Notes: generated by a model from the sequence alone, not told the origin. A stretch of 54,522 nt of DNA from Deinococcales bacterium (GCA_031414595.1 JANNVX010000093.1:1-54522); one strand, 5' to 3'. Shown: positions 1 through 54,522, counted from the first letter of the stretch. Program-made: numbers and translations.

Positions 1-112
1 CAAGTTTGAAATGGGGTTGCAAGGCTTGTTGTACAGGTTTATGCTTCATATGGCTACCTTCCTCGTGGTGGAGTGATGTAGCCACTATTCTTACTTTTTA
101 TTGTGAGCGACG

Positions 113-328
113 TTAAGTACCTACTTTTGACCAGTAGTTAGGGTTTTGGGTATAAAACTTGCCTACCGTCACTTTGAACTCGCCCGATGCAACGTCCAGA
201 TTCACTTCGCCATTGCGGTCAGTGCGCCCGTCCTTACCCCAACTGTTAAACATTCCTTGGTACACCGCCACCGCCGCACCCTCGGCTGGGTTGCCTGTCC
301 GACTGTTGATAACTTTTATTGTGACCAC
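113..328 (-). CDS. Small beta-sandwich protein (carboxypeptidase-regulatory-like fold), possibly C-terminally truncated
   Basis: VTIKVINSRTGNPAEGAAVAV...GRTDRNGEV pattern; GGGGGAAG SD-like sequence before GTG. Confidence 0.5.
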   Translation of the reverse strand: MVTIKVINSRTGNPAEGAAVAVYQGMFNSWGKDGRTDRNGEVNLDVASGEFKVTVGKFYTQNPNYWSKVGT

Positions 329-421
329 ACTTCCCCCTTTTTTTTGGCGGGGGGTCTCAAGTCCCGACCGACTCGAGACCCCCTTAGCGGATTAGTAAAT
401 CAGGATTTTGTCGAAAAAGAC

Positions 422-486
422 ACTGGTGAAAACACCACTTTTGGCGAAATTAGCGGATTTAGGGACTGGTGAAAACACCACTTTTG
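422..486. promoter_or_regulatory. Two identical 22-bp direct repeats (ACTGGTGAAAACACCACTTTTG), putative operators
   Basis: Copies at 422-443 and 465-486, each with internal dyad TGGTG-AAAA-CACCA, between divergent genes. Confidence 0.55.
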
Positions 487-674
487 TGTCCTTGGCGATT
501 CTATTTCTACTCATTTCCATCTCGAGGCGTTTTTTAATTCCAAGTCCCAAAATCTCCCTTACCAAATCCCTAAGCTAGTAGCGGCAATGCCGAAACTCAC
601 TTGCAGGTTGGTATGTACCTAACCCCCAATCAGAAAAATATGTTTTTGCTACCCAGACTTCGCTTGCCCCCATT

Positions 675-1994
675 GTGTCTTGGCATCACGTTTTTTGCAA
701 GCCCGTTTGTGGCAGAATCTATTATCAAATGTTATCAAGATTCTTTTTGAATACTCGAGACTCGCAAATTATCTTTACGGAGAACGTTTATAAACTTAAT
801 CGTCATTGGCTCGAGTTTATGGCGCTGCTGGTGCTGCATCGTCTTGAGGGCAAAGGCTTTGCATCAGTTTCTGATATTCAAACCCTACCCGATTGGCACC
901 GCGCCGCCTTGACTTCGATTGGCACAAGTGTGTTTCGACAACTGAACAAATGGCGCAAGCATGGTTTAGATGTGGTGGTTTCTCCTCCTGAGCAGCAAAC
1001 CAAATCTTTTATGTTGTTTGGCTCACTCGAGGTACAGTGCGACCTTGAGACCGATGAACTGCGAAGATGGTTGGGTTTCCGTACCACTATTCTGCTCGAT
1101 ACCGATGCTTACGAAGGACAGCGTTTGATGTTGATAGCACAAAGTTATTTTGAACGGGGTATTTTTGATGAAGCTGATAAATTTGCACGTTTGGCTTTGA
1201 CCCATGAATTGCTACCCGATTTTGAATTGCGGGTTTGGTCGTTGCTGACCATGATTGAATCGTATATTGGCAATCAAGAAAGCTCTTACAATGCCATTAC
1301 GCAGTTGCAGCAACGCCTGCGCCAACTCGAGCCAGTGCGCCCAGAAACAAGAGCTTGGGTGTACTGCCAAGTGGCGCGGCATATGTACAAGTATGCCACC
1401 AAACGCGAAGCGCGATTGCTCTACGAACAAGCGGCTAGGCTGCTCGAGCCACATCATTACCGTGAATTGGGAGCAATAGAATTTGGGCTTGCCATGAGTA
1501 CATCGGGCAAGCAACTCGAGGTTCAGCGCAAGCATTTTGTCCAAGCCTATCAGTATTATTTGCTTGCCGATTGGCGTTGGGCAGCAACTTGCCAACTCGA
1601 GAACATCGGAACAACACTGGTGCAGTTGGCGCGTGAAAAAAAAGGTAAACAACGCATAGCCCTGCTTGAAGAAGCGGTTCTAATTTTGAAGCGTTGTGTT
1701 GATATTGCCGATGCTTTAGACTTAAATGCAGGGGTTCACTGTGAAATCAATCTTGCTCGGGCTTTACGTTTGCTTGGTCAGACACAAGAAGCCAAAGAGT
1801 ATCTTGAGAAAGCCGAGCGACTGGCAGACTATAAAAAATTGCCTTGGGATTTGGCAATGGTTTACCTCGAGCAATCACGTTTGCTCGAGGATGACCCTGT
1901 GGCTTTTGCCCAAAAATTTGCCCAAGGCGAAGCCTATGCCGAACAGTGTGGACGGCTTGAGTCGTATCTTAAAGTGGCTACAGTCAAAGACTAA
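675..1994 (+). CDS. TPR-repeat protein with probable N-terminal winged-helix region (putative regulator); start uncertain
   Basis: Repeated TPR-like helices (e.g. NLARALRLLGQTQEAKEYLEKA); long ORF. Confidence 0.6.
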   Translation: MSWHHVFCKPVCGRIYYQMLSRFFLNTRDSQIIFTENVYKLNRHWLEFMALLVLHRLEGKGFASVSDIQTLPDWHRAALTSIGTSVFRQLNKWRKHGLDVVVSPPEQQTKSFMLFGSLEVQCDLETDELRRWLGFRTTILLDTDAYEGQRLMLIAQSYFERGIFDEADKFARLALTHELLPDFELRVWSLLTMIESYIGNQESSYNAITQLQQRLRQLEPVRPETRAWVYCQVARHMYKYATKREARLLYEQAARLLEPHHYRELGAIEFGLAMSTSGKQLEVQRKHFVQAYQYYLLADWRWAATCQLENIGTTLVQLAREKKGKQRIALLEEAVLILKRCVDIADALDLNAGVHCEINLARALRLLGQTQEAKEYLEKAERLADYKKLPWDLAMVYLEQSRLLEDDPVAFAQKFAQGEAYAEQCGRLESYLKVATVKD

Positions 1995-3807
1995 CTACTT
2001 CATGGCAATGATTTCTTTTTGACCACGCTGCGCCCAACCAATCTGCCAGGCATAAGCGCTGGGATAGACACTGGCGGCATTCCAAGTGTAGTTGCGTAAC
2101 CCGCGACGGGCAATAAACAAATTGGTGCGCTCGTAAAGTGGTAGGGCGGGAAGTTCTTCATTCCAGATTTTTTGCATGGCAACCAAATGCTGTTTACGTT
2201 TTTCAGGGTTGAATTCGCGTCGGGAAGCATCCCAAAGTCGGTCATATTCAGCATTGCACCAGCCACCCACGTTTGTGCCAGCATAATTGTTTTCTGGAAT
2301 ACCCAAGTTGTCTCGAGGTGTAAGGGTGCTTGGGTCGTCGCAGACAAACGAACCCATGTCTTCGGTCAGTGGTTGCTGAAAATTAGCAAACTGAAAGATA
2401 CCTTTCCATTTGCCTTTGTTGGCTTCACCAATAAATTCGTTCTCGAACAAGATACTGACTGGTGAGTTGCGAATTCGGACATCTATGCCAACTTTGCGAA
2501 GGTTTTCTCGGTAGAACAACTGGTCACGTTCTCGGATAGAATTACCTGCCGTGGTGATGTACTCGAGAATAAATTTGACGGTTTTGCCTTGGTGTGTTCG
2601 CTCGAGAATGTTATCAGAACCAACTTTCCACCCCAATTCTGCCGGCAGTTGCTTGGCGCGTTCGGGATTATAGCCGTAAGTTTTGAAACCCATATCGCTG
2701 TAGATACTGGCAGCCGAATTGACCACATTGTTGGTGACTTTGGCTGTTCCTGCTCGCAACTGACTAGCCACAGTCTGGCGATCCATGGCGTACATCAGTG
2801 CATGGCGGGTACGTTTATCCTGAAGTTGTAAGGCGGCGACTTCGGGGACTTCTTCGGCAAAGACATTGATTTCCATATGTTCCCATAGGGCAGCATTGGG
2901 CAAGTAAATTCCAAAGTTCCCGCCTAAAGTGCGAAGGGTTTCCACCGTGCTGGGGCTGGCACTGAGTCCGCCACTCGAGGTCGCATCTATTTGGTTGGCG
3001 ATGGCTGCGACTTGTAGGACATCGGTACTGCGGAAATAGCGGTATATCACGCGGTCAACCCCTGTAGGATTGTTATTCCAGTGGTTGGGGTTGCGAACCA
3101 ATGTCCAACTTTGGTCGGCTCGCCATTGGCTTAAGCGAAACGGACCACTGGTGACGACTGGACCGCCTTTATTGGTAAAGAACTTGTGTCCAAGAAATTC
3201 ACGGCGCATAATCTCGCGTTGCTCATCGGTGCTTTTGCCATTTGCCAGCCCTTTGGCTCGTTGCCAAATCGGTTTGACCACATGGGCTGGTGGTAGATAA
3301 TTTGGCACGAAACCCAAGTTGGAAGTGGCAAACAATTTGGGTGGGGTCGTACTCGAGTTCAAAGCTGCGGTCGTCTATCACCTTAAAAGTCTTGGGCGAG
3401 TCTCGACGGACTGCAACCTCGAGTTGTGGGTCAGAATAAATCTCAAAAGTCATGCGAAAGTCTTCGCTGCTGATTGGTCTACCATCTGACCATTTGGCAT
3501 CTGGGCGGATGCGCCAGCGTATTTTTTGAGCCACCACATTGCCTTTGGCATCGCGCTGTAACAGCAAGTCACCATTTTCCTCGGATGGAACACGCTCAGC
3601 AAGGTTTGGGCGCAAGACTCCGTTAAAATCAAAATAGGTCAGCCCCGCGAACAAGAACCCAAGTACCTCACCTGTAATGGCTTGAGTATTGACAAATGGA
3701 TCCATCGCCGAAGGCTGCTGGCTTGTGCCAATCACAAGGGTGTTATCACTGGGTCCTGCAAGTGCTGAACTAAGAATGAAGGCGATAAAGACCATGATTT
3801 TTTTCAT
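1995..3807 (-). pseudogene. Peptide ABC transporter substrate-binding protein (family 5) split by a single frameshift near 3343-3346
   Basis: N-part has a signal peptide and PNLAERVP..IRPDAKWSDGRPISSED; C-part has TSGPF..WNEELPALPLY; frames join as ELEYD-PPKLF if one G is removed. Confidence 0.8.
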
Positions 3808-3973
3808 GACCCATATTACCAAACAAAGCGATGGAGATGTCTTCGCTCAAGGTCTCTGTCTAATTGTACTGATTATCTACTTAATTGTAGCAATCCCGTT
3901 TGTTTCTCGAGCAGACCTGAACAGCATTCTCGAGGGCAAGGCACAACGACTCGAGAATTTGCTACCAGTGAGT

Positions 3974-6196
3974 TCACTTGATGTTAAAAACCAATTTCTC
4001 GTCTACAAAACTAACCTTAAGTTGCCCACCATTTTTAAGTTTCCCAAAGAGAATTTCGTCTGCCAGTGGTTTTTTCAGGTGTTCCTCGAGAACCCGCGCC
4101 AGTGGTCTTGCGCCAAAAAGTTTGTCATAGCCTTTTTTGCCAAGCCATGCTTTAGCCGCTTCATCTACTTCTATTTCGATGTTCTTCTCGAGCAATTGAG
4201 TGCTGAGTTCACGGATGAATTTCTCGACAATACCGCTCATGACCTCAGATGAAAGTGGATTAAATGGCATAATCGCATCTAAACGGTTGCGAAATTCTGG
4301 GGTGAAAAGGCGTTTGATTGCGTCATCCGAGGCAGCGTTGTTGATTCCGCCCGTAAAACCTATCGCGTTGCTCGAGGCTTCGGCTGCTCCCGCATTGGTG
4401 GTCATGATTAAAATGACGCTACGAAAATCTATGCTTTTACCGTTGTGGTCAGTGAGTTTTCCGTAATCCATGACCTGCAAGAGCAAACTAAATAAGTCTG
4501 GGTGGGCTTTTTCAATTTCGTCGAGCAGCACAACACTGTGCGGGTTTTGATAGACCGCATCGGTCAGTAAGCCACCTTGGTCAAATCCCACATAACCCGG
4601 AGGTGCGCCAATAAGCCTACTGATGCTGTGTTTTTCTTGGTATTCGGACATGTCAAAACGCAGGAAATGAATTCCAAGTTGTTTGGCGAGTTGCTTTGCC
4701 AATTCGGTTTTGCCAACCCCAGTCGGACCAGCAAAGAGGTATGAACCAATTGGTTTTATGGGGTCGCGCAATCCAGCCCGTGCCAGTTTAATACCTACCA
4801 CAACGTTTGCCACAGCTTTTTGTTGCCCGTAGACTTCTTTACTTAGGGTTTGCTCGAGATTTTGCAGTACATTGGCATCATCTTTAGAAACGGTTTTTTC
4901 TGGGATTCGCGCCAGTTTTGCCACCACAGTTTCGATATGCGTTTCCAAAATCACTCTGGCTCGGTCTTTCTTGGGCTTGAGGCTCTGGGCTGCACCCGCT
5001 TCGTCTATCACATCTATGGCGCTGTCTGGGAGTTTGCGGTCGGCTAAGTGTCGTGCCGCCAAATCCACGGCTCTGACAAGCGCTTCTGGGGCATATTTTA
5101 ATCCGTGATGGGTTTCAAATCTTGAACGTAAGCCCTCGAGTATCGCAATGCTGTCTTCGCGGCTAGGTTCGGGAATATCTATTTTTTGGAAGCGGCGCGA
5201 TAAGGCACGGTCTTTTTCAAAACCTTTGTACTCACCGTAAGTGGTTGCACCAATACACTTTAACTTGCTGGTCAGGGCGGGTTTGAGAATATTACTGGCA
5301 TCCATACTCGAGCCACTGACCGCCCCTGCACCAACCACAGTATGCACTTCGTCTATAAATAAAATCGCGTTTTGATGGGCTTGTAGCGCGTTCATGACGG
5401 CTTTTAGGCGTTCTTCAAAGTCACCCCTAAATCGCGTTCCAGCCAGCAGTGCGCCCATATCAAGCGCAAACAATTCTGCACCAAGCAGTTTTTCTGGGAC
5501 TTCTTTACTGATGATTCTCTGCGCCAAACCCTCGAGAATCGCGGTTTTGCCCACACCAGGGTCGCCAACCAGTAAGGGATTGTTTTTTAAGCGCCTTGAT
5601 AATACTTGTACCACCCGCTCGAGTTCGGTTGCTCGACCAATTAACGGGTCTAGCTCTCCCCTTTCGGCTTTGGCGGTCAGGTTATCGCAGTAGGCATCCA
5701 GAGGATTGTTAGCAACTCCGCCGCCTTCGTCCATGTCTGGGAAACCTTGGCTCGAGTTGTCTGAATCGGCGGGTACACCTTTGGGCATCACGCCCCTAGA
5801 AATCGCACTTGTTACATCCAGTCGGGTTAAACCAAAATTCTCGAGTAAACCAAGCGCTCTGGATTGGCGCTCATCAAAGACACTGACCAAGACATTTGCG
5901 CCGTTGGCAGCATCGCGTCCGGCGGCTCGCATGGACAGCATGGCGCGTTGCAGGGTGCGATGAAAGGCAGCCGTCGGGGTTGGTGCATCGGACTCGAGCA
6001 GTTCTGCTTCATCTAATAAATTATCCAGTTCGCCGCGAAAACTGGTAAAATCTAAGCCACAACGGGTTAAAATCAGTTTGGCATCATCATCATCGAGTAA
6101 CGCCCAAAGCAAATGTTCGAGCGTCACATATTCGTGCTGGCGTTCTGAAGCAAAACTCATGGCTCGAGTGATTGTGTCTTGAAGGGTTGAAGTCAT
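3974..6196 (-). CDS. clpA: ATP-dependent Clp protease ATP-binding subunit ClpA
   Basis: Clp N-domain, two AAA modules (GDPGVGKT, GPTGVGKT), no ClpB coiled coil, AIGF loop. Confidence 0.95.
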   Translation of the reverse strand: MTSTLQDTITRAMSFASERQHEYVTLEHLLWALLDDDDAKLILTRCGLDFTSFRGELDNLLDEAELLESDAPTPTAAFHRTLQRAMLSMRAAGRDAANGANVLVSVFDERQSRALGLLENFGLTRLDVTSAISRGVMPKGVPADSDNSSQGFPDMDEGGGVANNPLDAYCDNLTAKAERGELDPLIGRATELERVVQVLSRRLKNNPLLVGDPGVGKTAILEGLAQRIISKEVPEKLLGAELFALDMGALLAGTRFRGDFEERLKAVMNALQAHQNAILFIDEVHTVVGAGAVSGSSMDASNILKPALTSKLKCIGATTYGEYKGFEKDRALSRRFQKIDIPEPSREDSIAILEGLRSRFETHHGLKYAPEALVRAVDLAARHLADRKLPDSAIDVIDEAGAAQSLKPKKDRARVILETHIETVVAKLARIPEKTVSKDDANVLQNLEQTLSKEVYGQQKAVANVVVGIKLARAGLRDPIKPIGSYLFAGPTGVGKTELAKQLAKQLGIHFLRFDMSEYQEKHSISRLIGAPPGYVGFDQGGLLTDAVYQNPHSVVLLDEIEKAHPDLFSLLLQVMDYGKLTDHNGKSIDFRSVILIMTTNAGAAEASSNAIGFTGGINNAASDDAIKRLFTPEFRNRLDAIMPFNPLSSEVMSGIVEKFIRELSTQLLEKNIEIEVDEAAKAWLGKKGYDKLFGARPLARVLEEHLKKPLADEILFGKLKNGGQLKVSFVDEKLVFNIK

Positions 6197-6302
6197 GGTT
6201 GCATTGTAACGAGTTTAGTTAGAATCTTTGTTCTTTAGTACACATCGCACTGTTCAAAAATTGATACACTGCTGCGCTGCTTGAACAAAAGGAGGGATTG
6301 GC

Positions 6303-15400: not shown

Positions 15401-15472
15401 GTCTCGAGAATCCCATAAGTTTCAGCTTAAGAGCAAAAGCCTTTCAGTACGCGAAGAACCACAATCAGTCAG

Positions 15473-15738
15473 CCCCTCACCCGACTCGCTCAGGCTCGCC
15501 ACCTGTTGGAATGCCTGTAATTCTCTTCCTGCGTTTCCACGAGCTTCGCTCGAACTGTTGTAGTCCCAAAACGCTTCGCTGGGGGAGGGGCTTTGATTTT
15601 CATTGTTCTAAAAACACTTTTAGAACAATATTCTTGGTTTTAACCAAGAAACTATAGCAAAAAACATCCCGAATAACCCTCTCCCGCGCTTTTTGACGGG
15701 ATGAGGGTAACGAGCTTCAAGCGAGTTGGGTGAGGGTT
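15473..15738. repeat. Inverted pair of REP-like palindromic elements (CCCTCACCC...GGGAGAGGG type)
   Basis: CCCTCACCCGACTCGCT..GCTCGCCACC at 15474 matches the reverse complement near 15704-15736. Confidence 0.6.
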
Positions 15739-15838
15739 GGAACGCGGTATGGGCTACTATATTTTGGGCAATAGGTTTTTGTTGTTCTGCACTATAGATT
15801 TCCTTAAACTGATACAAACAGGCGAATCTCGAGACCCC

Positions 15839-29063: not shown

Positions 29064-29903
29064 CTAAATTTTTGCCTTAAAAGTATCGCATTGGTCTGGG
29101 CTTCCACCTTGCAAACCACGTACAAACCATTGTTGACGCTGGGCGGCACTGCCGTGGGTAAAGGTGTGCGGATTGGCAACCCGCCCAGCTTGCTGTTGTA
29201 ATACATCGTCACCAATTTCAGCCGCCGTCTCGAGGGCAGCCCGGATTTCGGTTTCGGTGATATTGGCACTTTGGTCTTTGGCGGTGGCGTTACCCCAAAT
29301 TCCCGCAAAACAATCGGCTTGGAGTTCTAAACGCACCGAAAGGTTATTACTTGTGACTTTATCAGACCGAGCGCGTTGTTCACGAACCTTACCTGAAATT
29401 CCAAGAATGTGCTGCACATGATGCCCGACTTCGTGTGCCAAAACATAGGCTTGGGCAAAATCAGAATTGCTTGTGCCGCGTAATTCTTGGAAAAACTGCA
29501 TATCAATGTAAATGGTTTGGTCTAAGGAACAGTAAAAAGGTCCCATGGCAGCTTCGGCAGCCCCACATCCACTTTGGTCTGAGCCAGAAAAAAGTACCAG
29601 TTTAGGCGCTTGGTAGGTCTCCCCTGCTTGCTTAAAAATTGCGCCCCAGACATCCTCGGTTTTGCCTAGGATACTCTCGGCAAATTGGCGGTCACGGTCG
29701 TTGAGGTTAGCGCTTCCGGTACTCGAGACTCGAGGGCTAGTTCCACCAAGTAAACCCAGCACTTGGGCTGGATTGACCCCAAAGACCAGACTGGCAATCA
29801 CAGCAATAATAATTCCGCCAATGCCAAGTCCGCCAGCCCGTGCTGCCCCGCCACCACGTCGGTCTTCGACATTGCCACTTTTACGGAAATTTTTCCAATT
29901 CAT
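29064..29903 (-). CDS. Neutral zinc metallopeptidase (YpfJ family)
   Basis: SGNVEDRRG, GPFYC, AHEVGHHVQ, ELQADC, THGSAAQR. Confidence 0.9.
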   Translation of the reverse strand: MNWKNFRKSGNVEDRRGGGAARAGGLGIGGIIIAVIASLVFGVNPAQVLGLLGGTSPRVSSTGSANLNDRDRQFAESILGKTEDVWGAIFKQAGETYQAPKLVLFSGSDQSGCGAAEAAMGPFYCSLDQTIYIDMQFFQELRGTSNSDFAQAYVLAHEVGHHVQHILGISGKVREQRARSDKVTSNNLSVRLELQADCFAGIWGNATAKDQSANITETEIRAALETAAEIGDDVLQQQAGRVANPHTFTHGSAAQRQQWFVRGLQGGSPDQCDTFKAKI

Positions 29904-37718: not shown

Positions 37719-38336
37719 TTATCTACTGTAATACTCAACCACGAATTGTTCGTTGACTGGAATCACAACATCTTCTCGAGCCGGCAAACGATCAAATTTA
37801 CCCTCGAGCTTATCGGCATCAAACGAAACCCAGTTTGGGGTGCGACGACGCTTAGAGGCTTCAGCATTTTCCTTAAAGAAGGTTAGGGTTTTGCTGGCTT
37901 CCTTGACGGTGATTGAGTCGCCTGGTTTAACACGGTAACTTGGAATGGTCACGCGCTTACCATTGACCCTAATGTGGTCATGCCCAACAAATTGACGTGA
38001 CTGACGACGGGTGGTGGCAATACCCATACGGTAGACAACATTATCAAGCCGACTCTCGAGCAGTTGAATAAAAATTGTACCCGTTACACCAACGCGGTTA
38101 GCAGCTTCGCCGAACAAGTTACGAAATGGCTTTTCGGACATTCCGTAAATACGAATCAGCTTTTGCTTTTCGCGTAAACGGACGCTAAAGTCACTTGGGC
38201 GACCCTTGCGGCGTTGACCGTGTTGACCGGGGGCGTATTCACGCCGAGCGAGGTATTTTGCGACCTTATCGGAATCAAAAAGATTGACTCCTTCACGGCG
38301 GCATAATTTAATTGCGGGTCCAGTATAACGAGCCAT
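37719..38336 (-). CDS. rpsD: 30S ribosomal protein S4
   Basis: [24 protein letters not shown]. Confidence 0.97.
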
Positions 38337-38728
38337 TACAACCTCATCTTCTTACGCGCACGGCAACCGTTATGCGGTACCGGAGTATCATCCATGATCG
38401 AACGGACATCGAGACCACTGGCTTGAATGGCACGAATGGCTTGTTCGCGTCCCGAGCCAGTACCACGCACAACCACATCAACAATGGTCATGCCCATGCC
38501 TTGGGCTTTCTTGGCAGCGTCGGCGGCGGCAAGTTGGGCAGCATAAGGTGTGCCTTTTTTGCTGCCTTTATAACCGATAGTACCGCCGCTACTCCAAGCC
38601 ACAGGGTTGCCAGCGCTATCGGCAATGGTGACAATGGTGTTGTTGTACGAAGCGTTAATGTACGCCTTGCCGCTTGGTATATTGCGGCGTTTGGCTTTTG
38701 GAGCCTTTCCTTTAGCAGGTTTCGCCAT
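38336..38728 (-). CDS. rpsK: 30S ribosomal protein S11
   Basis: [24 protein letters not shown]. Confidence 0.97.
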
Positions 38729-38730
38729 GA

Positions 38731-39111
38731 TTACTTCCTCGCGGCTTTCTTCTTACCGGCAACGGTCTTACGAGGACCTTTGCGGGTACGAGCGTTGGTT
38801 TTGCTTCGTTGACCACGAACCGGTAAGGATTTACGGTGACGTAAGCCACGGTAGCTTCCAATGTCCATCAGTCGCTTGATGTTCTGACCAATTTCTGAAC
38901 GCAAATCGCCTTCGATTTTGAAGTTTTTCTCGACAAAATCACGTAACTTGGTTTGTTCAGCTTCGGTCAAAGCCTTAACCCTTGTATCTGGGCTGATACC
39001 TGTTGCCTTAAGCACTTCTTGGCTGCGGGTTAGCCCGATACCAAAAATGTAGGTCAAAGCAATTTCGACACGCTTTTCGCGTGGTAAATCCACACCACTA
39101 ATACGCGCCAT
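38731..39111 (-). CDS. rpsM: 30S ribosomal protein S13
   Basis: [27 protein letters not shown]. Confidence 0.97.
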
Positions 39112-39113
39112 GC

Positions 39114-39227
39114 TTAACCCTGCCTCTGCTTATGATTGGGGTCTTTGCAGATCACAAAAACCACCCCATGTCGGCGAACAACTTTGCAGCTATCGCACAT
39201 TTTCTTAACACTTGCTCTGACTTTCAC
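39114..39227 (-). CDS. rpmJ: 50S ribosomal protein L36 (Zn-binding type; not in ORF track)
   Basis: Manual translation [44 protein letters not shown]. Confidence 0.95.
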
Positions 39228-39349
39228 GATTTTCCTCCTCGCGCCGCCGTTGTATTAGGTCTTTCGACCTTAGCAGCGCTCGACAGCCGTACAGCACTGT
39301 CTATTTGGACTAATTTGGGGGTAACAATTCCTGCTGAGTAAAATAAATT

Positions 39350-39610
39350 CTAAGTTTCGTAATGCCCATGACAACTAATAATTGTTAAATCGAGTTCGCT
39401 CCAACGATAAACCAAACGGTGTTCTTCGGTAATTCGCCTAGACCAAAAACCTGCAAATTGATGACGTAACGGTTCTGGTTTGCCCGTACCAGTAAACGGT
39501 GTTCTCGCACTTTCCTTGATAAGTTTGTTAATTTTAAGCCATACTTTACGATCAAACTCACCCCACGCCACGTATTGCTCCCACGCAGATTCAATAAATA
39601 TAATTTTCAC
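39350..39610 (-). CDS. yoeB: Txe/YoeB family toxin
   Basis: PFTGTGKPEPLRH..GFWSRRITEEHRLVY..SCHGHY. Confidence 0.93.
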   Translation of the reverse strand: MKIIFIESAWEQYVAWGEFDRKVWLKINKLIKESARTPFTGTGKPEPLRHQFAGFWSRRITEEHRLVYRWSELDLTIISCHGHYET

Positions 39611-39861
39611 AGTTCAGCAAGTTCCTTGGTGATAACTTTGCCATGTTTCAATTCTTCTAAAGCTTTATACATCTGGACAGCAGTACGCGGGTCAGAAAGC
39701 AAAAATTCGGTTTCTCTCATCGAACGAAATTCGGCATAAGAGATAATAATAGCTTGGTCTCCATCATTAGTCGTTAAAATTATCTGCCCTGCATCTTCAA
39801 CCACAGAACGAACCAAATCCTCGAGATTTTCTTTGGCTTCACGAACTGTAACTGCAACCAT
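39607..39861 (-). CDS. yefM: Phd/YefM family antitoxin
   Basis: VTVREAKENLEDLV..SMRETEFLLSDP; GTGA overlap with toxin. Confidence 0.88.
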   Translation of the reverse strand: MVAVTVREAKENLEDLVRSVVEDAGQIILTTNDGDQAIIISYAEFRSMRETEFLLSDPRTAVQMYKALEELKHGKVITKELAEL

Positions 39862-39872
39862 GACTGACTCCT

Positions 39873-40349
39873 TTAGACTTCTAAACACAACGGAAACTCC
39901 GAAACGAGTTCAGAGTTCGTAAGCGTACCATTTTTATTGTAAAAAGTCATAGTACCCTGTAAGTTACAAAACCAGACTTCCCTTGCACCTTGCTCTAAGT
40001 ACAAATCTAATTTCTCGAGCATTTCGTCTTGGGTGTTACTTGGGCTGGTAATTTCAACACAAATTTCTGGGGCAACAGGAAAGGGTGTGAAGCGTTTGTA
40101 CTCTTTATAAAATTCGCTGGACATCCAAGCCACATCAGCAACTTTAACGTTTTTACGGGTCTGGATACTACACTCAGAAATACTCGAGCCAGACTTTAAG
40201 AGTTGCATCAGCAAAGAGCCAATCATCATTTGCAAAATTCCGTGCATATTTGTGGCTGGACTCATAACAATTTTGCCTTGTTCGTTGAGTTCGATTTTAT
40301 AAGGTAAATTCTGGAGTGTATGATCATTGATAACTTCTTGCCAAGTCAT
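39873..40349 (-). CDS. Uma2 family (PD-(D/E)xK) endonuclease-like protein
   Basis: ELNEQGKIVMSP, VADVAW, APEICVEITSPS, GAREVW. Confidence 0.9.
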   Translation of the reverse strand: MTWQEVINDHTLQNLPYKIELNEQGKIVMSPATNMHGILQMMIGSLLMQLLKSGSSISECSIQTRKNVKVADVAWMSSEFYKEYKRFTPFPVAPEICVEITSPSNTQDEMLEKLDLYLEQGAREVWFCNLQGTMTFYNKNGTLTNSELVSEFPLCLEV

Positions 40350-46150: not shown

Positions 46151-46379
46151 TTTTGCTTCTCCTGTTGGTCAGCTTCAACTCATTTCTCGAGTTCAAACCG
46201 TTTTCTAGCTTCGCGGGTGGTATCGGATGAATCCAACCGACCATCCCCGCACCGACTCGAGACCCTGCTGCTAGGCTTGAACCTCTAGCACGTTTGTACC
46301 CAAGTTTTTGAATTCTCGAGAAACCTCGAGCAGTAGAGTGTACTCTATTTTTAGGCTTGGACGGGAGTCTTTTGCCCTG

Positions 46380-46515: not shown

Positions 46516-46519
46516 TCTC

Positions 46520-46789: not shown

Positions 46790-46801
46790 AGGTCTCCTGA
46801 T

Positions 46802-46828
46802 GTGGGGTGAGGCATGCCTCACCCCTAC
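46802..46828 (-). repeat. GTAG-type REP-like palindrome
   Basis: Minus strand GTAG-GGGTGAGGCATGCCTCACCC-CAC; perfect 22-bp dyad 46804-46825. Confidence 0.6.
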
Positions 46829-46830
46829 GG

Positions 46831-47376
46831 TTATTTTTTGAACGGAAAGCCTAAGCCCTCGAGCAGGGCGCGACCTTCTTCGTCATTCTTGGCGGTGGTG
46901 ACGACTGTAATGTCAAATCCACGGGTTGCATCTACCATTTCGTAAGTAATTTCCGGGAAAACCATTTGTTCTTTGATACCGAGGTTGTAGTTACCACGTC
47001 CGTCAAAGCTATTTGGATTGACTCCACGAAAATCACGAATACGCGGCAAAGCGATGTTCAAGAGTTTCTCGAGAAAAGTGTACATTTTTTCGCCCCGAAG
47101 CGTGACTTTTAAGCCAACGTTTTGACCAGCACGGAGCTTAAAGTTTGAGACGCTTTTCTTGGACTTGGTGATAATCGGCTTTTGCAGCGTAATGATTGCC
47201 ATGTCTTTTTGGGCTTTCTCGAGCAATTTGGAATCGTCTTTAGCTTCGCCGATACCTTGGTTGACCACGACTTTGACAAGGGCGGGGACTGCCATTGGGC
47301 TGGTGTAACCAAAGCGTTTCATCATGTCCTCGCGGACAGTGGTTTGATAAGTGGTTTTTAATCTCTGCATTGCCAT
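46831..47376 (-). CDS. rplE: 50S ribosomal protein L5
   Basis: [24 protein letters not shown]. Confidence 0.96.
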
Positions 47377-47381
47377 AGGAC

Positions 47382-47696
47382 TCACCTGCTCTCTTCGATG
47401 GTGACATTACTCTTTTTGGAGACACGCACCTTCTTACCATTGATTACTTTATGGGCAATGCGGGTTGCTTTGCCCTCAGAATCCACAACCATGACCTTAC
47501 TGGCATGAATCGGTGATTCAAACTTGGTAAAACCACCGGTACGGTTGGTTTCGGTTGGCTTGACTGCCTTGGTGACGATGTTGACACCTTCAACTAGAAC
47601 AGTTTCTTTATTCGGCAAAACTTTTAAGATTTTTGCCACTGTACCACGGTCTTTGCCGCGCAGCACTTTTACGGTGTCGCCAGTCTTGACGTGCAT
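47382..47696 (-). CDS. rplX: 50S ribosomal protein L24
   Basis: [27 protein letters not shown]. Confidence 0.96.
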
Positions 47697-48079
47697 TACA
47701 ACACCTCCGGGGCAAGGGATACAATTTTCATGAACTTACGGTCACGCAGTTCTCGAGCAATCGGTCCGAAAACACGAGTACCACGAGGTTCACCCTCTTT
47801 GTTGATAATTACGGCGGCATTGCGGTCAAAACGAATCGCACTACCATCGGCGCGTTTAACAACTTTGCTGGTACGCACGACAACGCATTTCACAACGTCA
47901 CCTTTTTTGACTGTACCGCGAGGGGCGCATTCTTTGACGCTGGCAATAATCACATCGCCTACGCCAGCGTACTTTTGGTTGCCACTACCGCGTGACAAAC
48001 CACCCATGACGCGAAAGCACATCACTTTCTTTGCGCCAGTGTTATCGGCTACATCTAATTCTGTAAAGGATTGAATCAT
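47696..48079 (-). CDS. rplN: 50S ribosomal protein L14
   Basis: [22 protein letters not shown]. Confidence 0.97.
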
Positions 48080-48081
48080 GT

Positions 48082-48330
48082 CTAGTCCTTTTTCGACTCG
48101 ACCAAACGATTAACTTTCCACGTTTTGGTCTTGCTGATTGGGCGCACGGCAATGATTTCAACGATGTCGCCTGTTTTGTATTCGTTGTTTTCATCATGCG
48201 TGGCATACTTTTTACTGCGAGTCACAACCTTGCCGTACAGTGGATGGGTAAATTTACGTTCCACTTTGACCGAGATGGTCTTGTCGGCTTTGTCGGACAC
48301 GACTGTGCCTATAAAGGTTTTAACTGCCAT
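48082..48330 (-). CDS. rpsQ: 30S ribosomal protein S17
   Basis: [24 protein letters not shown]. Confidence 0.96.
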
Positions 48331-48555
48331 TTACTTCACCTTCTTTGCCAAACCAGCGCCGCGTTTTTCGGTGGCAATGGTCAGGAGTTGCGCGATTTCT
48401 TTGCGAAGAAGATTCAGTCTCGAGGTGTTGGTTACGGTACTGACAACTTTTTGAAAGCGTAGTTTCATCAGTTCTTCTTTGCGTGTTGCAACTTCCTTAT
48501 CGAGACTGGATAATTCCATCTCGCGGAAGGCTTTTAAGGACTCACTGCGCTTCAT
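48331..48555 (-). CDS. rpmC: 50S ribosomal protein L29
   Basis: [17 protein letters not shown]; canonical position. Confidence 0.92.
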
Positions 48556-48967
48556 CGTACACTTCCCTTTGGACAAACTTCGTCTTGATTGGGAGTTTAT
48601 GCCCTGCCAGACGGAAGGCTTCGCGGGCTTGTTCTTCGGTCACACCTTCAACCTCGAACATCACACGACCCGGTTTAACCACTGCCACCCAGTATTCAAC
48701 TGCACCTTTACCGCTACCCATGCGCGTTTCGGCTGGTTTTTTGGTAATTGGCTTATCTGGGAAGATGCGGATATAAATTTTACCACCACGGCGAAAGTAC
48801 CGACTCATGCTGATACGGCAGGCTTCAATGTGGTTGCTGCGAATCCAAGCAGCTTCCATCGCAACCAGACCGAAATCTCCGAAGGCGATATAATCGCCGC
48901 CTTTGGTCGAGCCGCGCATACGACCCTTCATTTGCTTGCGGAACTTCATACGTTTTGGAAGTAGCAT
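48542..48967 (-). CDS. rplP: 50S ribosomal protein L16
   Basis: [21 protein letters not shown]. Confidence 0.97.
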
Positions 48968-49749
48968 TATGCGCCTCCCTTCTCTGGACGACGAGCGCGA
49001 GCGCCTGGGCGGGTGCGATTGCCACCACCATTACGACGATCATCACTGCCACTCTTGCCACCATCTGCTCCACCCCTTGACATTGGGCGGGCGGCTGGAC
49101 GAGTACCATCTTGCTTACCAATCACTTCGCCATTAAAGACAATCACTTTAATACCGAGCTTACCGTAAGTGGTCAGGGCTTCAGCAAAACCGTAATCAAT
49201 ATCGGCACGCAAAGTGTGAAGTGGTACACGACCTTCCATGCGGGTTTCTTTACGACCTTGCTCAGCGCCACCAAGACGACCCGAAACCACGATTTTGCAA
49301 CCCTTCGCGCCGGATTCCATGACTTTTTGGATGGCTTGCTGCATCGCACGCTTATAGGCAAAACGGCGTTCGATTTGCTCGGCAATACGCTGAGCAATGA
49401 GCGGGGCGCTGGTGTTTGGATTACCAACTTCTTCGACATTGACGGCGACCGTGCTGTTATGACCAACTACGGCGGTCAAGGTATCACGCAACTTTTTGAT
49501 GTTTGCGCCGTCTTTACCGATGACCACGCCCGGCTTAGCGGCTTTAACGGTCACATTGACTTGGTGGGCTGCACGTTCGATGTTGATCGTGGCAACGCCA
49601 GCGTTATTGAGTTCTTTAGTGACCATTTTACGGATTTTGCTGTCCTCAACAATTAGTTTAGCATAATCTTTTTTGGTCGCAAACCATTTAGACAAGTGGT
49701 CTTTGTTAATCCCGATGCGTAGACCGAGTGGATTGATTTTATTACCCAT
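48967..49749 (-). CDS. rpsC: 30S ribosomal protein S3
   Basis: [29 protein letters not shown]. Confidence 0.97.
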
Positions 49750-50111
49750 TATCGCTTCCCACCCTTTTGCTTGCCTTCTGGCATTTCCTCGAGAATGATT
49801 GTGACGTGACTGGTGCGTTTGAGCAGTCCATCACCACGACCACGGGCGCGAGGGATAATGCGTTTCAAGGTTGGACCTTCGTTGACATAAGCACTGCTGA
49901 TGTACAACTGATCCTCGAGCATCTCGAAATTGTTGGTGGCATTCGCCTTAGCACTCTTTAAGACTTTAGCAATTGGTGTGGTTGCACCTTTTGGAATAAA
50001 TTTGAGTAAGTCTTCGGCATCCTTGACGGTTTTGCCACGAATCAGGTCAATCACCAATCGCATTTTACGCGGAGTGATGCGGATAAATTTAGCATGTGCA
50101 AGGCTTTGCAT
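49749..50111 (-). CDS. rplV: 50S ribosomal protein L22
   Basis: PRKMRLVIDLIRGK, PRARGR, KRTSH. Confidence 0.97.
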   Translation of the reverse strand: MQSLAHAKFIRITPRKMRLVIDLIRGKTVKDAEDLLKFIPKGATTPIAKVLKSAKANATNNFEMLEDQLYISSAYVNEGPTLKRIIPRARGRGDGLLKRTSHVTIILEEMPEGKQKGGKR

Positions 50112-50398
50112 TATTTCTTACCTGTTGCCTTTGCATCTTTGCCACCACTGTGACCCTTAAAGATTCGAGTGGGTGAGAATTCACCGAGCTTATGACCGAC
50201 CATGTTCTCAGAAACAAAGACTGGGACGTGTTGCTTTCCATTATGGACAGCAATTGTTAAACCAATCATTTCTGGAACGATGGTGCTACGGCGCGACCAA
50301 GTTTTGATGACGCGCTTATCGTTTTTAGCGCTGGCAGCATCTACTTTGTCGAGCAGGTGGAGATCCACAAATGGACCTTTTTTGGCACTCCTTGGCAT
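50111..50398 (-). CDS. rpsS: 30S ribosomal protein S19
   Basis: [24 protein letters not shown]. Confidence 0.97.
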
Positions 50399-50474
50399 TA
50401 TTTAACTCCTTGCTGGGTTATTCCCAGCGCAGACCAGGGGGTATCGGAGCAAGCGCCCCGACCCGACCTGTCCT

Positions 50475-51311
50475 TTATCTCGAGTTCTTACGGCGAGAAA
50501 TGATGAAGCTACTCGAGGTGTTACGCTTCTTACGGGTTTTACCACCCTTAGCAATCTTACCCCAAGGCGATACTGGCGTGCGTCCTGTTGGAGCGCGTCC
50601 TTCACCACCGCCGTGTGGGTGGTCTACTGGGTTCATCGAACTGCCGCGTTGATGTGGCTTATTGCCCATCCAACGTTGACGACCTGCCTTACCGATAACC
50701 ACGTTCTTGTGATCGGCATTGCCAACCACGCCAACTGTGGCATAGCATTCGGTGTGAACCCGACGCAATTCTCCCGAAGGTAGACGAAGCACCACATAAT
50801 CGCCTTCTTTACCTTGGACTTGAGCGCTTGTTCCAGCACTGCGAGCCATTTTTGCACCACGTCCAGGTACTAATTCAATACTGTGGACGACTGTACCAAC
50901 CGGAATAAAACGTAACGGCATGGCATTACCGACTCGAGGTTCGGCTTCTGGACCCGAAACAATTCGGCTACCTATTTCTAAGCCGTCTGGCGCGAGGATA
51001 TAACGCTTCTCGCCGTCGAGGTAATGCAGCAGGGCAATGTTTGCCGAGCGGTTTGGATCGTATTCGATAGCGGCGACTTTGGCTGGCACGCCACCCTTGT
51101 CACGGCGTTTGAAATCAATCACACGATACAAGCGCTTATGTCCGCCACCAATAAAACGACTGGTGGTACGACCCGTATTGCTGCGTCCACCAGTTTTAGG
51201 CAGTGGTTCAGTCAAAGACTTTTCTGGGCGCTTCTTGGTTAAGTTACTAAAGTCAAGGGTCGTGATGTAACGACGGCTTGGCGTATACGGACGATATTCT
51301 TTGGTTGGCAT
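50475..51311 (-). CDS. rplB: 50S ribosomal protein L2
   Basis: [21 protein letters not shown]. Confidence 0.97.
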
Positions 51312-51312
51312 T

Positions 51313-51603
51313 TTAATTTGCCCCCTCAAGCGATTCGATCTTTTGTCCTTCGGCTAACTGCACAATCGCCTTACGGCGAGCCGCAGTCAAACCAGCAAAA
51401 CGACCAACCCGCTTATGAGCGCCGCGCACGTTTTGGACATTGACGGACACCACTTTAACGCCAAATGCTTTTTGCACCGCGTTCTTGACTAAAGTTTTAT
51501 TTGCCCCGGGATGAACCCAAAAGCTGTACTTGCCTTCTGCCATAGCAGCGTAGGCTTTTTCACTCGAGACTGGCTCGAGCAGCACGTCATAAACGGCGTT
51601 CAT
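51313..51603 (-). CDS. rplW: 50S ribosomal protein L23
   Basis: [24 protein letters not shown]. Confidence 0.95.
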
Positions 51604-52709
51604 GCGTCACCTTCTTTGTTTTCAGTTGACACTGCGCGTCCAGCCACTAATTTCTCGGTTAAAGCAACAAAACCAGCTTCATCGCCGCTTGCGAGTAAGG
51701 CAGACTGTTCTGCCCATGTACCAATACTTGGGTGTGAACGCATTCCAGCCGACTCGAGGGCAGCTTTGAGGCTATCTTCGCTTGAGGCTGCAAGTTGTGC
51801 GAATGTATTGATTCCAGCCGCCAACAGCGCGTCATTGATTTTTGGACCAATTCCTTCGATGCGTTTTAGGTCGTCGCCAGCAGCAGCTTTCTTGGCAGCT
51901 TTCGGAGCAGCTTCAACCACTTTGGCTGGTTTTGCAGGAGCAGCCGCTTTTGCTTCGGCAGCAATCGCAGCTTTCGCAACAGTACCTTTAGGACCTTTGG
52001 AGGGTCTAACCACTGCTTCTGGCATTGGATTGGCTTTCAAGGCATTGGCTTGATTACTCGCTTTTACCGCAGCAGCCCGAGCTTCGCTTTTCTCGGCTTG
52101 GTCAGCTTTGAAATTTAGGCTTGTACCAACTGCCTCGAGAACTGCTTTGTCGGCAACCAATTGCTCGTGACGCAAAACGTCATAGCAATTTAAGCCAGCC
52201 GCTTTAACGGCAGTGACCCAGTGTAAATTCTTAGCTGCACGAATTGCCATCAGGTCGTTGGTGACTAAGAACACACGTTCAGAGCCGTCCATGCCATTGG
52301 CTTTTGCCCAAGCAAGAAAACCCTTGGTTTTGCCATCAAGGTTAAAACCATCTACGGCAAGAACTTTGCCTTCGGCAACTCGGCTCGAGACCGCCATGGC
52401 TAAGCCCAACTTACGGACTTTTTTAGGCAGTGTGTAGTCGTAACTGCGTGGTTTAGGACCAAAAGCTGCGCCACCACCAACGTAAATCGGAGCGGAACGG
52501 TCGCCGTGACGGGCGTTGCCGGTTCCCTTTTGGCTGTAGAGCTTTTTACCTGTGCGGCTGACTTCGGCTCTCGTTTGGGTACTGGCAGTACCACGGCGGC
52601 GCTTGGCGAGTTGCCAATTGACCACTTCGTACAAGACATGGGTTTTTGCTGTCGGGAGATTCAACTCGAGACTACCCGGATTATTTCCAATAACGCTAAT
52701 GCTCGGCAT
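51600..52709 (-). CDS. rplD: 50S ribosomal protein L4 with C-terminal Ala/Lys linker and HhH domain
   Basis: RGTASTQTRAEV, QKGTGNARHG, FGPKPR; tail DDLKRIEGIGPK. Confidence 0.95.
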   Translation of the reverse strand: MPSISVIGNNPGSLELNLPTAKTHVLYEVVNWQLAKRRRGTASTQTRAEVSRTGKKLYSQKGTGNARHGDRSAPIYVGGGAAFGPKPRSYDYTLPKKVRKLGLAMAVSSRVAEGKVLAVDGFNLDGKTKGFLAWAKANGMDGSERVFLVTNDLMAIRAAKNLHWVTAVKAAGLNCYDVLRHEQLVADKAVLEAVGTSLNFKADQAEKSEARAAAVKASNQANALKANPMPEAVVRPSKGPKGTVAKAAIAAEAKAAAPAKPAKVVEAAPKAAKKAAAGDDLKRIEGIGPKINDALLAAGINTFAQLAASSEDSLKAALESAGMRSHPSIGTWAEQSALLASGDEAGFVALTEKLVAGRAVSTENKEGDA

Positions 52710-53332
52710 TATTTCCCGCCTCCCTTCTTGGCTTGCTTAATCACCACAAGACCACCATTTGCACCCGGAATCGCACCCTTAATTAAAAGCAGATTTTCCG
52801 AAGCACGAACCTCAACAACCTCGAGATTCTGGGTAGTAATGCGTTCAACACCATAGTGACCCGGCATTTTTTTACCTTTAATAACCCGACCAGGGGTTTT
52901 ACGCGCACCAATCGAACCACCACGACGATGCCATTTCTTCGCACCGTGCGAAGCTGGACCACCTTGGAAATTCCAGCGCTTCATCACACCAGTAAAACCG
53001 CGTCCCTTAGAAGTCCCAACCACGTCCACTTTTTCGCCAGCCGTGAAAATTTCGGCGGTAATGGTGTCCATCTCTGGGGCGTAATCGCGGAATTCACGCA
53101 AGTGACGCATCGGGGCAGATTTTGCTTTCTCGAGATGACCAAGTTCTGGCTTGCTCAAGGCTTTTTTCGGGGTCTCACCGAAACCAATTTGAACTGCACT
53201 GTAACCATCGTTTGCTGGGGTTTTACGCTGCACAACTGGGCAGGGTCCCGCCAGCACGACAGTCACTGGGATAACCTTGTCATTTTTCCAGACTTGGGTC
53301 ATACCGACTTTTGTGCCGAGGATGCCTTTCAT
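52709..53332 (-). CDS. rplC: 50S ribosomal protein L3
   Basis: KVGMTQ, DGYSAVQ, SKGRGF, KGAIPG. Confidence 0.97.
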
Positions 53333-53649
53333 GCAGCACCTCCTACAGTCTTGACTTCAATCTCAACGCCACTTGGTAAATCCAAGGTGCTTAAGCTCTC
53401 GATGGTTTTCTTGGTTGGATTGGTAATATCCACCAAGCGGTTGTGGGTACGAAGCTCGAAATGTTCACGGCTATCTTTGTGCTTGAACGGTCCACGAATC
53501 ACAGTAAAGCGACGAATACGGGTTGGCAACGGAATTGGTCCAGCCACATCTGCGCCAGAGCGCTTGACTGCATCCACAATTTTCGCGGCGCTCGAGTCTA
53601 ACGAGCGGTGGTCAAAGCCACGCAATTTAATACGAATTTTAGGTCCCAT
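53329..53649 (-). CDS. rpsJ: 30S ribosomal protein S10
   Basis: KIRIKL, GPIPLPT, SREHFE. Confidence 0.97.
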
Positions 53650-53700
53650 GCTTACTCCAAAACTGTCAAGTGTCTGTATTAATTATCAGACGACAAAGTA

Positions 53701-53729
53701 CCGCGCAGGGGCGTTAAACCTGTGCGCGG
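53701..53729 (-). terminator. Hairpin downstream of tuf
   Basis: CCGCGCA..GG / CC..TGCGCGG stem right after the tuf stop; weak U-tail. Confidence 0.45.
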
Positions 53730-53738
53730 TGAATAAAT

Positions 53739-54522
53739 TTACTCAAGAATTTCTGTAACTACGCCAGCCCCAACGGTGCGACCACCTTCACGAATTGCAA
53801 ATCGCAATTCTTTTTCCATCGCAATTGGTTTAATCAATTCAACTTCAAAGTTAATCTGATCGCCAGGCATGACCATTTCCACACCTTCGGGTAAGGTCAC
53901 AATTCCAGTTACATCGGTAGTACGAAAGTAAAATTGTGGTCGGTAGCCAGCAAAGAACGCAGAGTGACGACCGCCTTCATCTTTATTTAAGACATAAACA
54001 CTGGCTTTGAATTTGGTGTGTGGTTTGATGCTATTGGTTTTACTTAAGACTTGTCCACGTTCAATGTCTTCGCGTTTTACACCACGTAATAGGACTCCGA
54101 CATTATCACCAGCCATACCTTCATCCAAGAGTTTACGGTGCATTTCCACACCAGTCACGACTGATTTAACAGTATCTTTCAAACCGACAATTTCAACTTC
54201 TTCGTTGACGCGGCACTTACCACGTTCAATCCGACCTGTTGCCACTGTTCCACGTCCAGTGATGGTAAAGACATCTTCGACTGGCATCAGGAATGGTAGG
54301 TCAACCGCACGTTCTGGGGTTGGGATGAAGCTATCAACCGCATCGAGTAAGTTCCAGATGGCATCTACCCATTTATTTTCACCACGCGGGGTTTTTGGGG
54401 CAGTCACCAAGAAGTCTAATGCTTCTTTAGCCGAACCACGAACGATTGGAATATCATCACCTGGAAAATCGTATTTACTTAGCAGTTCACGAACTTCCAT
54501 TTCGACTAGCTCGAGCAGTTCT
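53739..54522 (-). CDS. tuf: Elongation factor Tu (5' part outside window)
   Basis: [38 protein letters not shown]. Confidence 0.98.

Follow-up and report, generated by a model that had tools for sequence, protein, structure and literature searches.

In cyanobacterial genomes that carry HIP1 (GCGATCGC) or one of the alternate highly iterated palindromes (HIPs), no other word is as strongly over-represented as this short exact palindrome. HIP1 is over-represented 15- to 300-fold; it has lacked an explanation for thirty years and had been regarded as peculiar to cyanobacteria. Here the hexamer CTCGAG was analyzed in a stretch of 54,522 nucleotides from a Deinococcales bacterium (GCA_031414595.1, JANNVX010000093.1), called the window throughout, in the genome to which it belongs (G000) and in other Deinococcota. 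CTCGAG belongs to the HIP type of highly iterated palindromes, and its conservation and distribution demonstrate that a whole uncultured family of Deinococcales has inherited the word and actively keeps it.

The described HIP words occur at densities of 1,000-2,000 per Mb, and Elhai (2015, PMC4390886) gives a methyltransferase specific for the word, or for its core, in every genome which carries one. The model set out in section 3.4 of that paper (PMC4390886) needs a GC dinucleotide capable of forming G-meC (methylcytosine). Conservation of HIP1 within genes as well as between them, and a distribution periodic at 10-90 kb, are described by Xu, Lawrence and Durand (2018, PMC5861425). In the preprint of Kamoku and Nielsen (bioRxiv 10.1101/2024.09.10.611283), natural transformation rose up to 7-fold through homologous HIP1 sites and by a factor of more than 100 when these were methylated, and roles in uptake or processing together with a Chi-like role were proposed. 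A 2026 study (PMC13756078) reports a correlation of HIP1 abundance with pilus and competence genes and no significant correlation with its two methylases.

CTCGAG resembles HIP1 in several respects. It is found in all reading frames and in intergenic DNA, it is conserved above background between relatives, it follows clades with sporadic exceptions, and it appears scarce in imported DNA. It differs in being another word, a 6-mer without a GC dinucleotide, in another phylum and with no cognate methylase that could be named; CGATCG has three copies in G000. It is also denser than the described HIPs, with 5,176 sites per Mb in G000 and up to about 12,000 in genome G149, and in contrast to the G-meC model it has no GC and shows no saturation near one site per kb. 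A second group of comparable words is formed by the DNA uptake sequences (DUS) of Neisseriaceae and the uptake signal sequences (USS) of Pasteurellaceae, which are 9-12 bases long, non-palindromic and present about once per kb. CTCGAG shares with them a genome-wide occurrence, a location in genes, an effect on peptides and an absence from foreign DNA, and the host has the ComEC gene of the competence machinery; DUS and USS are kept by transmission bias. Unlike them, CTCGAG is a palindrome of six bases at 5.2 per kb with little information in its flanks. No report of a CTCGAG-rich genome, or of a HIP outside cyanobacteria, was found in the literature, supplementary tables being outside the scope, and CTCGAG does not occur in the main text of Elhai (2015, PMC4390886; supplement likewise outside the scope).

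Abundance of CTCGAG

Exact counting gave 245 CTCGAG sites spread over the whole window (1..54522), which corresponds to 4.5 per kb. An initial annotation of this DNA had put the number at about 245, with about 12 expected and block counts of 52, 54, 53, 37 and 49; the count and the blocks are exact, and the mononucleotide expectation is 12.2. In 100 dinucleotide-preserving shuffles of the window the mean was 7.17 sites (standard deviation 2.79, maximum 15), and none of the 100 reached 245.

The window spans contig C93 of G000 from end to end; G000 is an assembly of 4,488,778 bases in 120 contigs with 47.2% GC and 94% completeness. The genome contains 23,235 copies of CTCGAG, equal to 5.18 per kb or about one per 190 bases. 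All 120 contigs carry the word, at 2.3-8.6 per kb, so the enrichment is not confined to the contig of the window, a confinement which the initial annotation had named as a possible refutation. Genome-wide, the observed-to-expected ratio (O/E) was 23.9 against base composition, 43.5 against a first-order and 18 against a second-order Markov model. The highest-order Markov model (expectation 19,988) gives no information, since overlapping 5-mers of CTCGAG itself enter into that expectation. CTCGAG is the commonest hexamer of G000, and the hexamers ranked 2 to 7 all overlap it. It is about three times as frequent as the commonest of these and about four times as frequent as AAAAAA (5,616 copies), the first hexamer unrelated to it. 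The palindromic hexamer ranked second has an O/E of 2.15.

Independence from codon usage and effect on proteins

Genes of G000 were called crudely as 3,866 longest open reading frames (ORFs) of at least 100 amino acids, accepted greedily. Sites fully within coding DNA numbered 20,375 (5.15 per kb) and intergenic sites 2,852 (5.34 per kb). All three reading frames were occupied, with 12,102 sites read as CTC GAG, 4,005 as xxC TCG AGx and 4,313 as xCT CGA Gxx. Ten shuffles of synonymous codons within genes, which preserve the protein, hence all dipeptides, and also the codon usage of each gene (itself inflated by CTCGAG), retained 1,926-2,052 sites (about 1,995) compared with 20,420 observed, a 10-fold excess. 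The earlier view that codon bias is insufficient to explain sites lying in all frames and between genes therefore agrees with the counts, and a null model preserving codons and dipeptides, which had been named in advance as the possible refutation, leaves most of the sites in excess. Together, these results demonstrate that CTCGAG is a word of the DNA itself and not a codon, peptide or RNA signal.

The two codons of the commonest frame are minor ones outside the word, as CTC makes up about 8% of leucine and GAG about 21% of glutamic acid codons there. Of all Leu-Glu pairs, 60% are spelled CTCGAG. No dipeptide of the proteome is over-used as much as Leu-Glu (O/E 2.23, 20,212 cases), while the reverse pair, Glu-Leu, has an O/E of 0.98. 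In samples of 4,000-11,000 residues per row from other genomes, the Leu-Glu O/E was 2.1-2.9 in seven further genomes with dense CTCGAG (six sample rows). Two intermediate genomes gave 1.5-1.65, and three that lack CTCGAG gave 1.17-1.32.

Conservation, loss and gain of sites

The window was aligned to five congeneric genomes, and in each the sites were kept more often than control hexamers. Against G001 (92.2% identity, 41,978 bases aligned) 170 of 191 sites were intact, compared with a fraction of 0.668 for control hexamers, and against G005 (93.1%, 40,769 bases) 172 of 186, compared with 0.692. The difference was wider for the more diverged genomes: 128 of 172 compared with 0.347 for G003 (81.9%, 37,075 bases), 41 of 59 compared with 0.238 for G006 (77.8%, 13,093 bases) and 36 of 52 compared with 0.263 for G007 (78.3%, 10,463 bases). 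Intergenic sites were kept in 8 of 10 cases against 0.447 for the control, in small numbers.

Synonymous change was followed at third positions relative to G003 in codons with unchanged first and second positions. The third position of CTC was kept in 88 of 94 codons inside sites (before GAG) and in 48 of 81 elsewhere, and that of GAG in 83 of 91 inside and 49 of 85 elsewhere. The same was seen for CGA (17/19 inside, 33/75 elsewhere) and TCG (31/34 inside, 41/50 elsewhere). Pooled, 19 of 238 positions had changed inside sites and 120 of 291 outside, a slowdown to 0.19 of the outside value in raw counts and to 0.14 after Jukes-Cantor correction, or about five times slower. The conservation above background, at synonymous positions as well as between genes, bears out the proposal of a genome-wide process which creates or keeps the sites.

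Losses and gains were scored from four-way patterns over 30,162 positions of the window, with G003 as outgroup. All four genomes had 94 sites in common. On the terminal branches 22 losses (8, 12 and 2) and 6 gains (3, 2 and 1) were found. The single-step losses were nearly all C>T or G>A and affected the outer and the inner C alike, so that there is no single deamination hotspot.

To both sets of data a one-parameter description was fitted, in which the fixation rate of a change destroying a site is assumed to be the neutral rate times S/(e^S-1), S being the population-scaled strength of the bias. From the synonymous slowdown of 0.14-0.19, S is about 2.7-3.1. In mutational input, losses, with 6 positions in each of 23,235 sites, exceed gains, with one specific change in each of 11,992 one-off words, by 25-35 to 1, and at balance, where e^S equals this ratio, S would be about 3.2-3.6. 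As these two independent numbers, the slowdown and the abundance of sites relative to their neighbour words, agree, we infer that one weak, position-blind fixation bias per site, with S of about 3, accounts for the abundance and for the conservation. The ratio of 22 losses to 6 gains on terminal branches lies between the input ratio and balance, as is expected if recent losses are still unpurged.

Distribution in Deinococcota

The initial annotation took CTCGAG for a HIP1-like word outside cyanobacteria, and the nearest loci place it there. SecY of the window is 68% identical to that of an uncultured Deinococcales metagenome-assembled genome and 50-53% identical to those of Deinococcus, Thermus and Trueperaceae. 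The locus of this uncultured relative, the nearest in public data, has 4.88 CTCGAG per kb. The 80 loci scanned, of which 79 are more distant than the nearest and mostly belong to other phyla, have a median of 0.42 and a second-highest value of 1.92 per kb. Among public sequencing runs, the stretch itself was present only as assembled contigs in four freshwater-sediment runs of one study, from which it may originate.

Clusters of the word, defined as three CTCGAG within short gaps, were surveyed in 364 Deinococcota genomes (the tallies of family f2 and of the phylum include G325). All 19 genomes of family f1, which comprises five genera of 48-61% GC, possess 108-1,026 clusters. The two largest genera are essentially without them: 8 of 111 genomes of g7 have one each, and 7 of 32 genomes of g9 have 1-3. 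Other genera are intermediate, with 5-151 clusters in g13, 35-73 in g23, 73-134 in g24, 81 in g11 and 124 in g15. Genus g19 contains both extremes, with 431 clusters in G149, 578 in G150 and none in G151.

Sampled densities showed the same gradation. They were 12.3 CTCGAG per kb in G149, 8.6-8.9 in G150, 8.15 in G009, 4.2-4.9 in G013, 4.05 in G032, 3.65 in G197, 3.24 in G175, 1.1 in G206, 0.35 in G040 and 0.2 in G151, where the O/E was 0.8. In the syntenic secY region, G150 and G151 share about 70% DNA identity and have 16 and 0 sites, respectively. The trait is thus graded and patchy across the 364 genomes; the comparison with other Deinococcota that had been suggested at the outset reveals a graded enrichment.

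Context and spacing of the sites

The flanks of CTCGAG add little information, which makes the hexamer itself the unit. Extension to a palindromic 8-mer is mildly avoided, and CCTCGAGG is strongly avoided (about 7-fold), with 178 copies against 1,203-1,425 for the remaining contexts in which C precedes CTCGAG. Its rarity would fit a past or present system targeting that 8-mer. The context GCTCGAGC is not favoured (1,540 of 23,235 sites). G032 differs in having CCTCGA and TCGAGG among its top hexamers. Words one change away from CTCGAG had an O/E of 1.06-1.20 when derived by transition and 0.16-0.70 when derived by transversion. A depletion of CTTGAG and TTCGAG, which the initial annotation had proposed to look for, was not seen, with an O/E of 1.06 for CTTGAG/CTCAAG and 1.20 for TTCGAG/CTCGAA.

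Pairs of sites less than about 30 bases apart are under-represented, with a pair correlation of 0.36 at 7-12 bases and 0.50 at 12-21. From 60 to 3,000 bases this correlation is flat (1.01-1.06), and no periodicity or preferred spacing was detected up to 3 kb in the assembly of 120 contigs. An exception to the deficit of close pairs is the start-to-start spacing of 7, with 101 cases genome-wide compared with 17 and 20 for spacings 8 and 9 and 17-49 for spacings 8-14. The window has such a pair at 29722..29734, where two sites one base apart start at 29722 and 29729 (CTCGAGnCTCGAG).

Fifteen site-free stretches longer than 1.8 kb have a GC content of 32-44%, which suggests imported DNA. A multi-copy repeat at 15410..15815 resembling a miniature inverted-repeat transposable element has no internal CTCGAG, its flanking sites being at 15403 and 15828. 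Its 29 matches in G000 cover 4,022 bases with 3 CTCGAG, two of them the flanking ones (0.75 per kb), and dozens of partial, short copies are present in G001, G005, G006 and G007. These observations suggest that foreign or mobile DNA is poor in CTCGAG.

The word is also thinned out in the most constrained genes. On the minus strand, rplP (L16, 48542-48967, Pfam Ribosomal_L16) and rpsC (S3, 48967-49749, Pfam Ribosomal_S3_C and KH_2) lie in a site-free stretch of 1,363 bases (48425..49787) between sites at 48419 and 49788. The tuf fragment at 53739..54522 (minus strand), which encodes domains 2 and 3 of EF-Tu, has one CTCGAG, at 54510. Both features, an empty run of about 1.3 kb over rplP-rpsC and a single site in the tuf segment, had been read correctly from the sequence beforehand. 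The longest site-free stretch of the window, 38061..39819 (minus strand), is flanked by sites at 38055 and 39820 and covers the 5' part of rpsD, rpsK (S11), rpsM (S13) and a YoeB/YefM toxin-antitoxin pair (Pfam). Together with a gene of the Uma2 nuclease family, this pair lies at 39350-40349 within the cluster of ribosomal-protein genes and secY, between rpsM and infA. The L4 gene at 51600-52709 (minus strand) encodes 369 amino acids, much longer than usual. Behind the L4 domain, residues 279-316 match a helix-hairpin-helix motif (HHH_5), through a C-terminal fusion or possibly an artefact of ORF calling.

Methylases, nucleases, competence genes and phages

G000 is rich in methylases. Matches over the cut-off include 9 of Eco57I type, 8 of N6_N4 type and 5 of C5 type, at least 22 in total. 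Of its 64 palindromic hexamers, 34 have an O/E of 0.10 or less, with counts of 0 for GGGCCC, 2 for TGCGCA and 3 each for CGATCG, GGCGCC and GACGTC. In samples from family genomes 18-34 of 64 palindromes are depleted, and in G151 5-9 of 64. The depletion of 34 of 64 points to heavy restriction pressure in the lineage.

The initial annotation had offered an orphan CTCGAG or TCGA methylase with repair of the Vsr type as a cause and had recommended a search for the corresponding genes. The search lent it no support. Vsr (PF03852) was not found in G000 at its 94% completeness, and no methylase ortholog group of the N6_N4, C5 or N6 type spans G000 and five genomes representing one family genus each, so that no methylase shared by the carriers emerged. 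A TaqI-like methylase (Eco57I with TaqI_C) was rejected as candidate, two being present in G000 and a TaqI_C match in 5 of 18 relatives (6 of the 19 family genomes). Neither an N6_N4 methylase nor a TaqI_C match is present in G013, whose genome is complete. Within genus g19, matches of N6 type and N6_N4 type number 7 and 2 in G150, 0 and 0 in G151, and 0 and 0 in G149, which is 58% complete.

A divergent methylase on contig C72 of G000 had looked conserved and was also rejected, as it is found in 6 of 18 family relatives and in no member of g19. This putative amino-methyltransferase of 424 amino acids (L260:1557-3406) has only weak N6_N4 and D12 matches, and its gene immediately follows one for a Uma2 nuclease. 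An ortholog in G011 shares 61-62% identity with it, and the occurrence of this methylase is sporadic (21 of 364 genomes of the phylum). The copy number of Uma2 does not track the word either, with 14 copies in G013 and 3 in G150, which carry CTCGAG, and 1 in G151, 1 in G040 and 8 in G206, counted as genomes without it.

The XhoI nuclease family (PF04555) is represented in 0 of 19 family genomes. The single member in the order was found in G021, a genome of another family which still has about 2.8 CTCGAG per kb near secY, and where at L423:4897-6791 a nuclease of 312 amino acids is convergent with an N6_N4 methylase of 339 amino acids. This methylase was rejected as a source, since G000 has no close relative of it and shows only generic motif similarity. 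Taken together, a link to a methylase is unsupported in this comparison of mostly incomplete bins, which often miss mobile genes; target specificity is unreadable from sequence, and unrelated methylases may have the same target.

The competence gene comEC (PF03772) is present in G000 and in 17 of the 18 other family members. As a discriminator it was rejected, being nearly universal in the phylum (339 of 364 genomes).

A few phage modules in IMG/VR, among the matches listed, carry 4.4-5.9 CTCGAG per kb. In L406, L378 and L337, which encode tape measure, tail, endolysin and portal proteins, the density is 4.4-5.3 per kb and CTCGAG is the top hexamer. One ORF of the phage contigs matched G000 among the matches listed, and the L337 portal matched none of the 364 Deinococcota genomes.

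Possible sources of the bias

Tentatively, and at somewhat less than even chances, we favour a drive linked to transformation or recombination as the source of the bias, judging from analogy and from the pattern of sites. The cell would handle incoming or recombining DNA with a bias, and DNA bearing CTCGAG would have an advantage in binding, uptake or recombination during natural transformation. Through over-transmission, CTCGAG alleles would spread as a molecular drive or as a weakly selected watermark of the own kind; methylation of the word may or may not be required. Mutational decay, almost all of it C>T/G>A, would be balanced by a weak and roughly additive fixation bias (S of about 3) for the exact hexamer. 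Such a force would override codon choice and enrich the proteome by about eleven thousand Leu-Glu pairs. This drive is placed first because of the parallel with HIP1, the competence genes in carriers and an additive per-site force that is blind to coding. With a Chi-like role, as proposed for HIP1, a frequent word would likewise raise recombination of the DNA bearing it, and hence drive. Chi words are oriented and strand-skewed, which a palindrome cannot be.

Several points weigh against the drive. No receptor or enzyme emerged from the genes compared, and the presence of ComEC does not discriminate, since the 339 of 364 genomes include G151 and the two large genera without CTCGAG. Known uptake sequences are longer, non-palindromic and present about once per kb, whereas this is a palindromic 6-mer at 5-12 per kb, and for cultured Thermus the uptake of DNA is described as independent of sequence. 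The 22 losses against 6 gains may mean that this low-GC genus is losing sites, without balance. The genes were crude calls of longest ORFs, and the alignments cover the window, with 30,162 four-way positions. Binding-site selection or locally biased mismatch repair yields the same conservation and the same fit. On balance the drive ranks above locally biased repair, and the latter above selection for a binding protein.

Second place, with roughly half the weight of the drive, goes to locally biased short-patch mismatch repair or gene conversion. A nuclease or glycosylase, with or without a methylase, would resolve mismatches near to CTCGAG in favour of the word, leaving it a by-product without function of its own, as in models of the Vsr/Dcm or Elhai type. 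Very-short-patch repair by Vsr/Dcm in Escherichia coli is a known case of repair bias as a source of over-represented words, and CTCGAG is the recognition site of XhoI and PaeR7I. A palindrome of 6 bp is typical for dimeric enzymes of the restriction-modification type, such systems for this very word circulate in the order (the XhoI-family nuclease beside an N6_N4 methylase in G021), G000 has its many methylases, and the force acts per site, is blind to coding and is flat with distance. Restriction as such depletes its target, whereas CTCGAG is enriched 24-fold and the nuclease family was found in none of the 19 family genomes. For the repair model as well, the gene content is unfavourable: Vsr was not found in G000, no methylase ortholog extends across the family genera, the complete G013 is devoid of N6_N4 methylase and TaqI_C matches, G149 reaches 12 sites per kb without an N6-type or N6_N4-type methylase in its 58% complete bin, and nothing in G000 is closely related to the methylase paired with the nuclease in G021. 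The words themselves argue in the same direction, as the one-off words derived by transition, including the T-containing precursors, are undepleted and both C positions are lost about equally, without a 5-methylcytosine hotspot. CTCGAG also has no GC dinucleotide as required by the G-meC model in section 3.4 of Elhai (2015, PMC4390886), nor do its flanks show a G...C preference.

Selection of the sites as binding positions for an abundant chromosomal protein, in nucleoid organization, compaction or segregation and with a small benefit per site, is less probable again. The sites are conserved within and between genes, from which Xu et al. (PMC5861425) argued similarly for HIP1, and the deficit of close pairs below about 30 bases would fit the footprint of a protein. 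There is, however, no candidate protein, no spacing or periodicity is preferred up to 3 kb in the 120-contig assembly, and the absence of the word from the congeneric G151 and from the two large genera of the order is hard to explain.

A marking of own DNA for defence, by which the host would spare DNA dense in CTCGAG, perhaps modified, and attack imports without it, appears improbable. The extreme past restriction pressure visible in the 34 depleted palindromes, the foreign islands without CTCGAG and the 4.4-5.3 sites per kb of some IMG/VR phage structural modules, among the matches listed, would agree with it. No such defence system is known to us, the portal of a CTCGAG-rich phage contig (L337) matched no Deinococcota genome out of 364, and no conserved methylase was found among the family genomes compared.

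That the excess is an artefact of codon usage, dipeptides, base composition, assembly or a peculiarity of the contig is practically out of the question, for even though 12,102 of the 20,420 coding sites are read as CTC GAG, more than in either other frame, and codon usage alone brings GC-rich genomes from other phyla to 1-1.9 sites per kb, the word stands 10-fold above the synonymous shuffles, is equally dense between genes, consists of codons that are minor outside it (about 8% of Leu, about 21% of Glu) and is seen in 120 of 120 contigs and 19 of 19 family genomes.

Implications

CTCGAG provides a second case of a HIP, denser, with a different word and in an unrelated phylum known for natural competence. 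A second case in an unrelated phylum suggests that HIPs are a general outcome of some DNA-handling process. The lineage offers an independent system for the hypotheses of transformation, repair and binding, in which densities are graded between 0.2 and 12 sites per kb inside a single order. The congeneric pair G150 and G151, one with and one without the word, is suited for phyletic profiling of the responsible gene. In practical terms, sites of the XhoI type are useless as rare cutters in these genomes, and composition-based binning and gene-finding models are skewed. For the organism itself, CTCGAG rewrites codon choice, adds Leu-Glu pairs to proteins and flags imported DNA. It is possible, at about one chance in three by our judgement, that CTCGAG is the recognition word of a putative sequence-specific system for DNA transactions, acting in entry, recombination or repair, which would be ancestral to Deinococcales, extreme in several lineages and switched off in others, including the two largest genera, and would represent a second independent origin of a HIP. 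If this is true, the responsible gene could explain HIP words in general.

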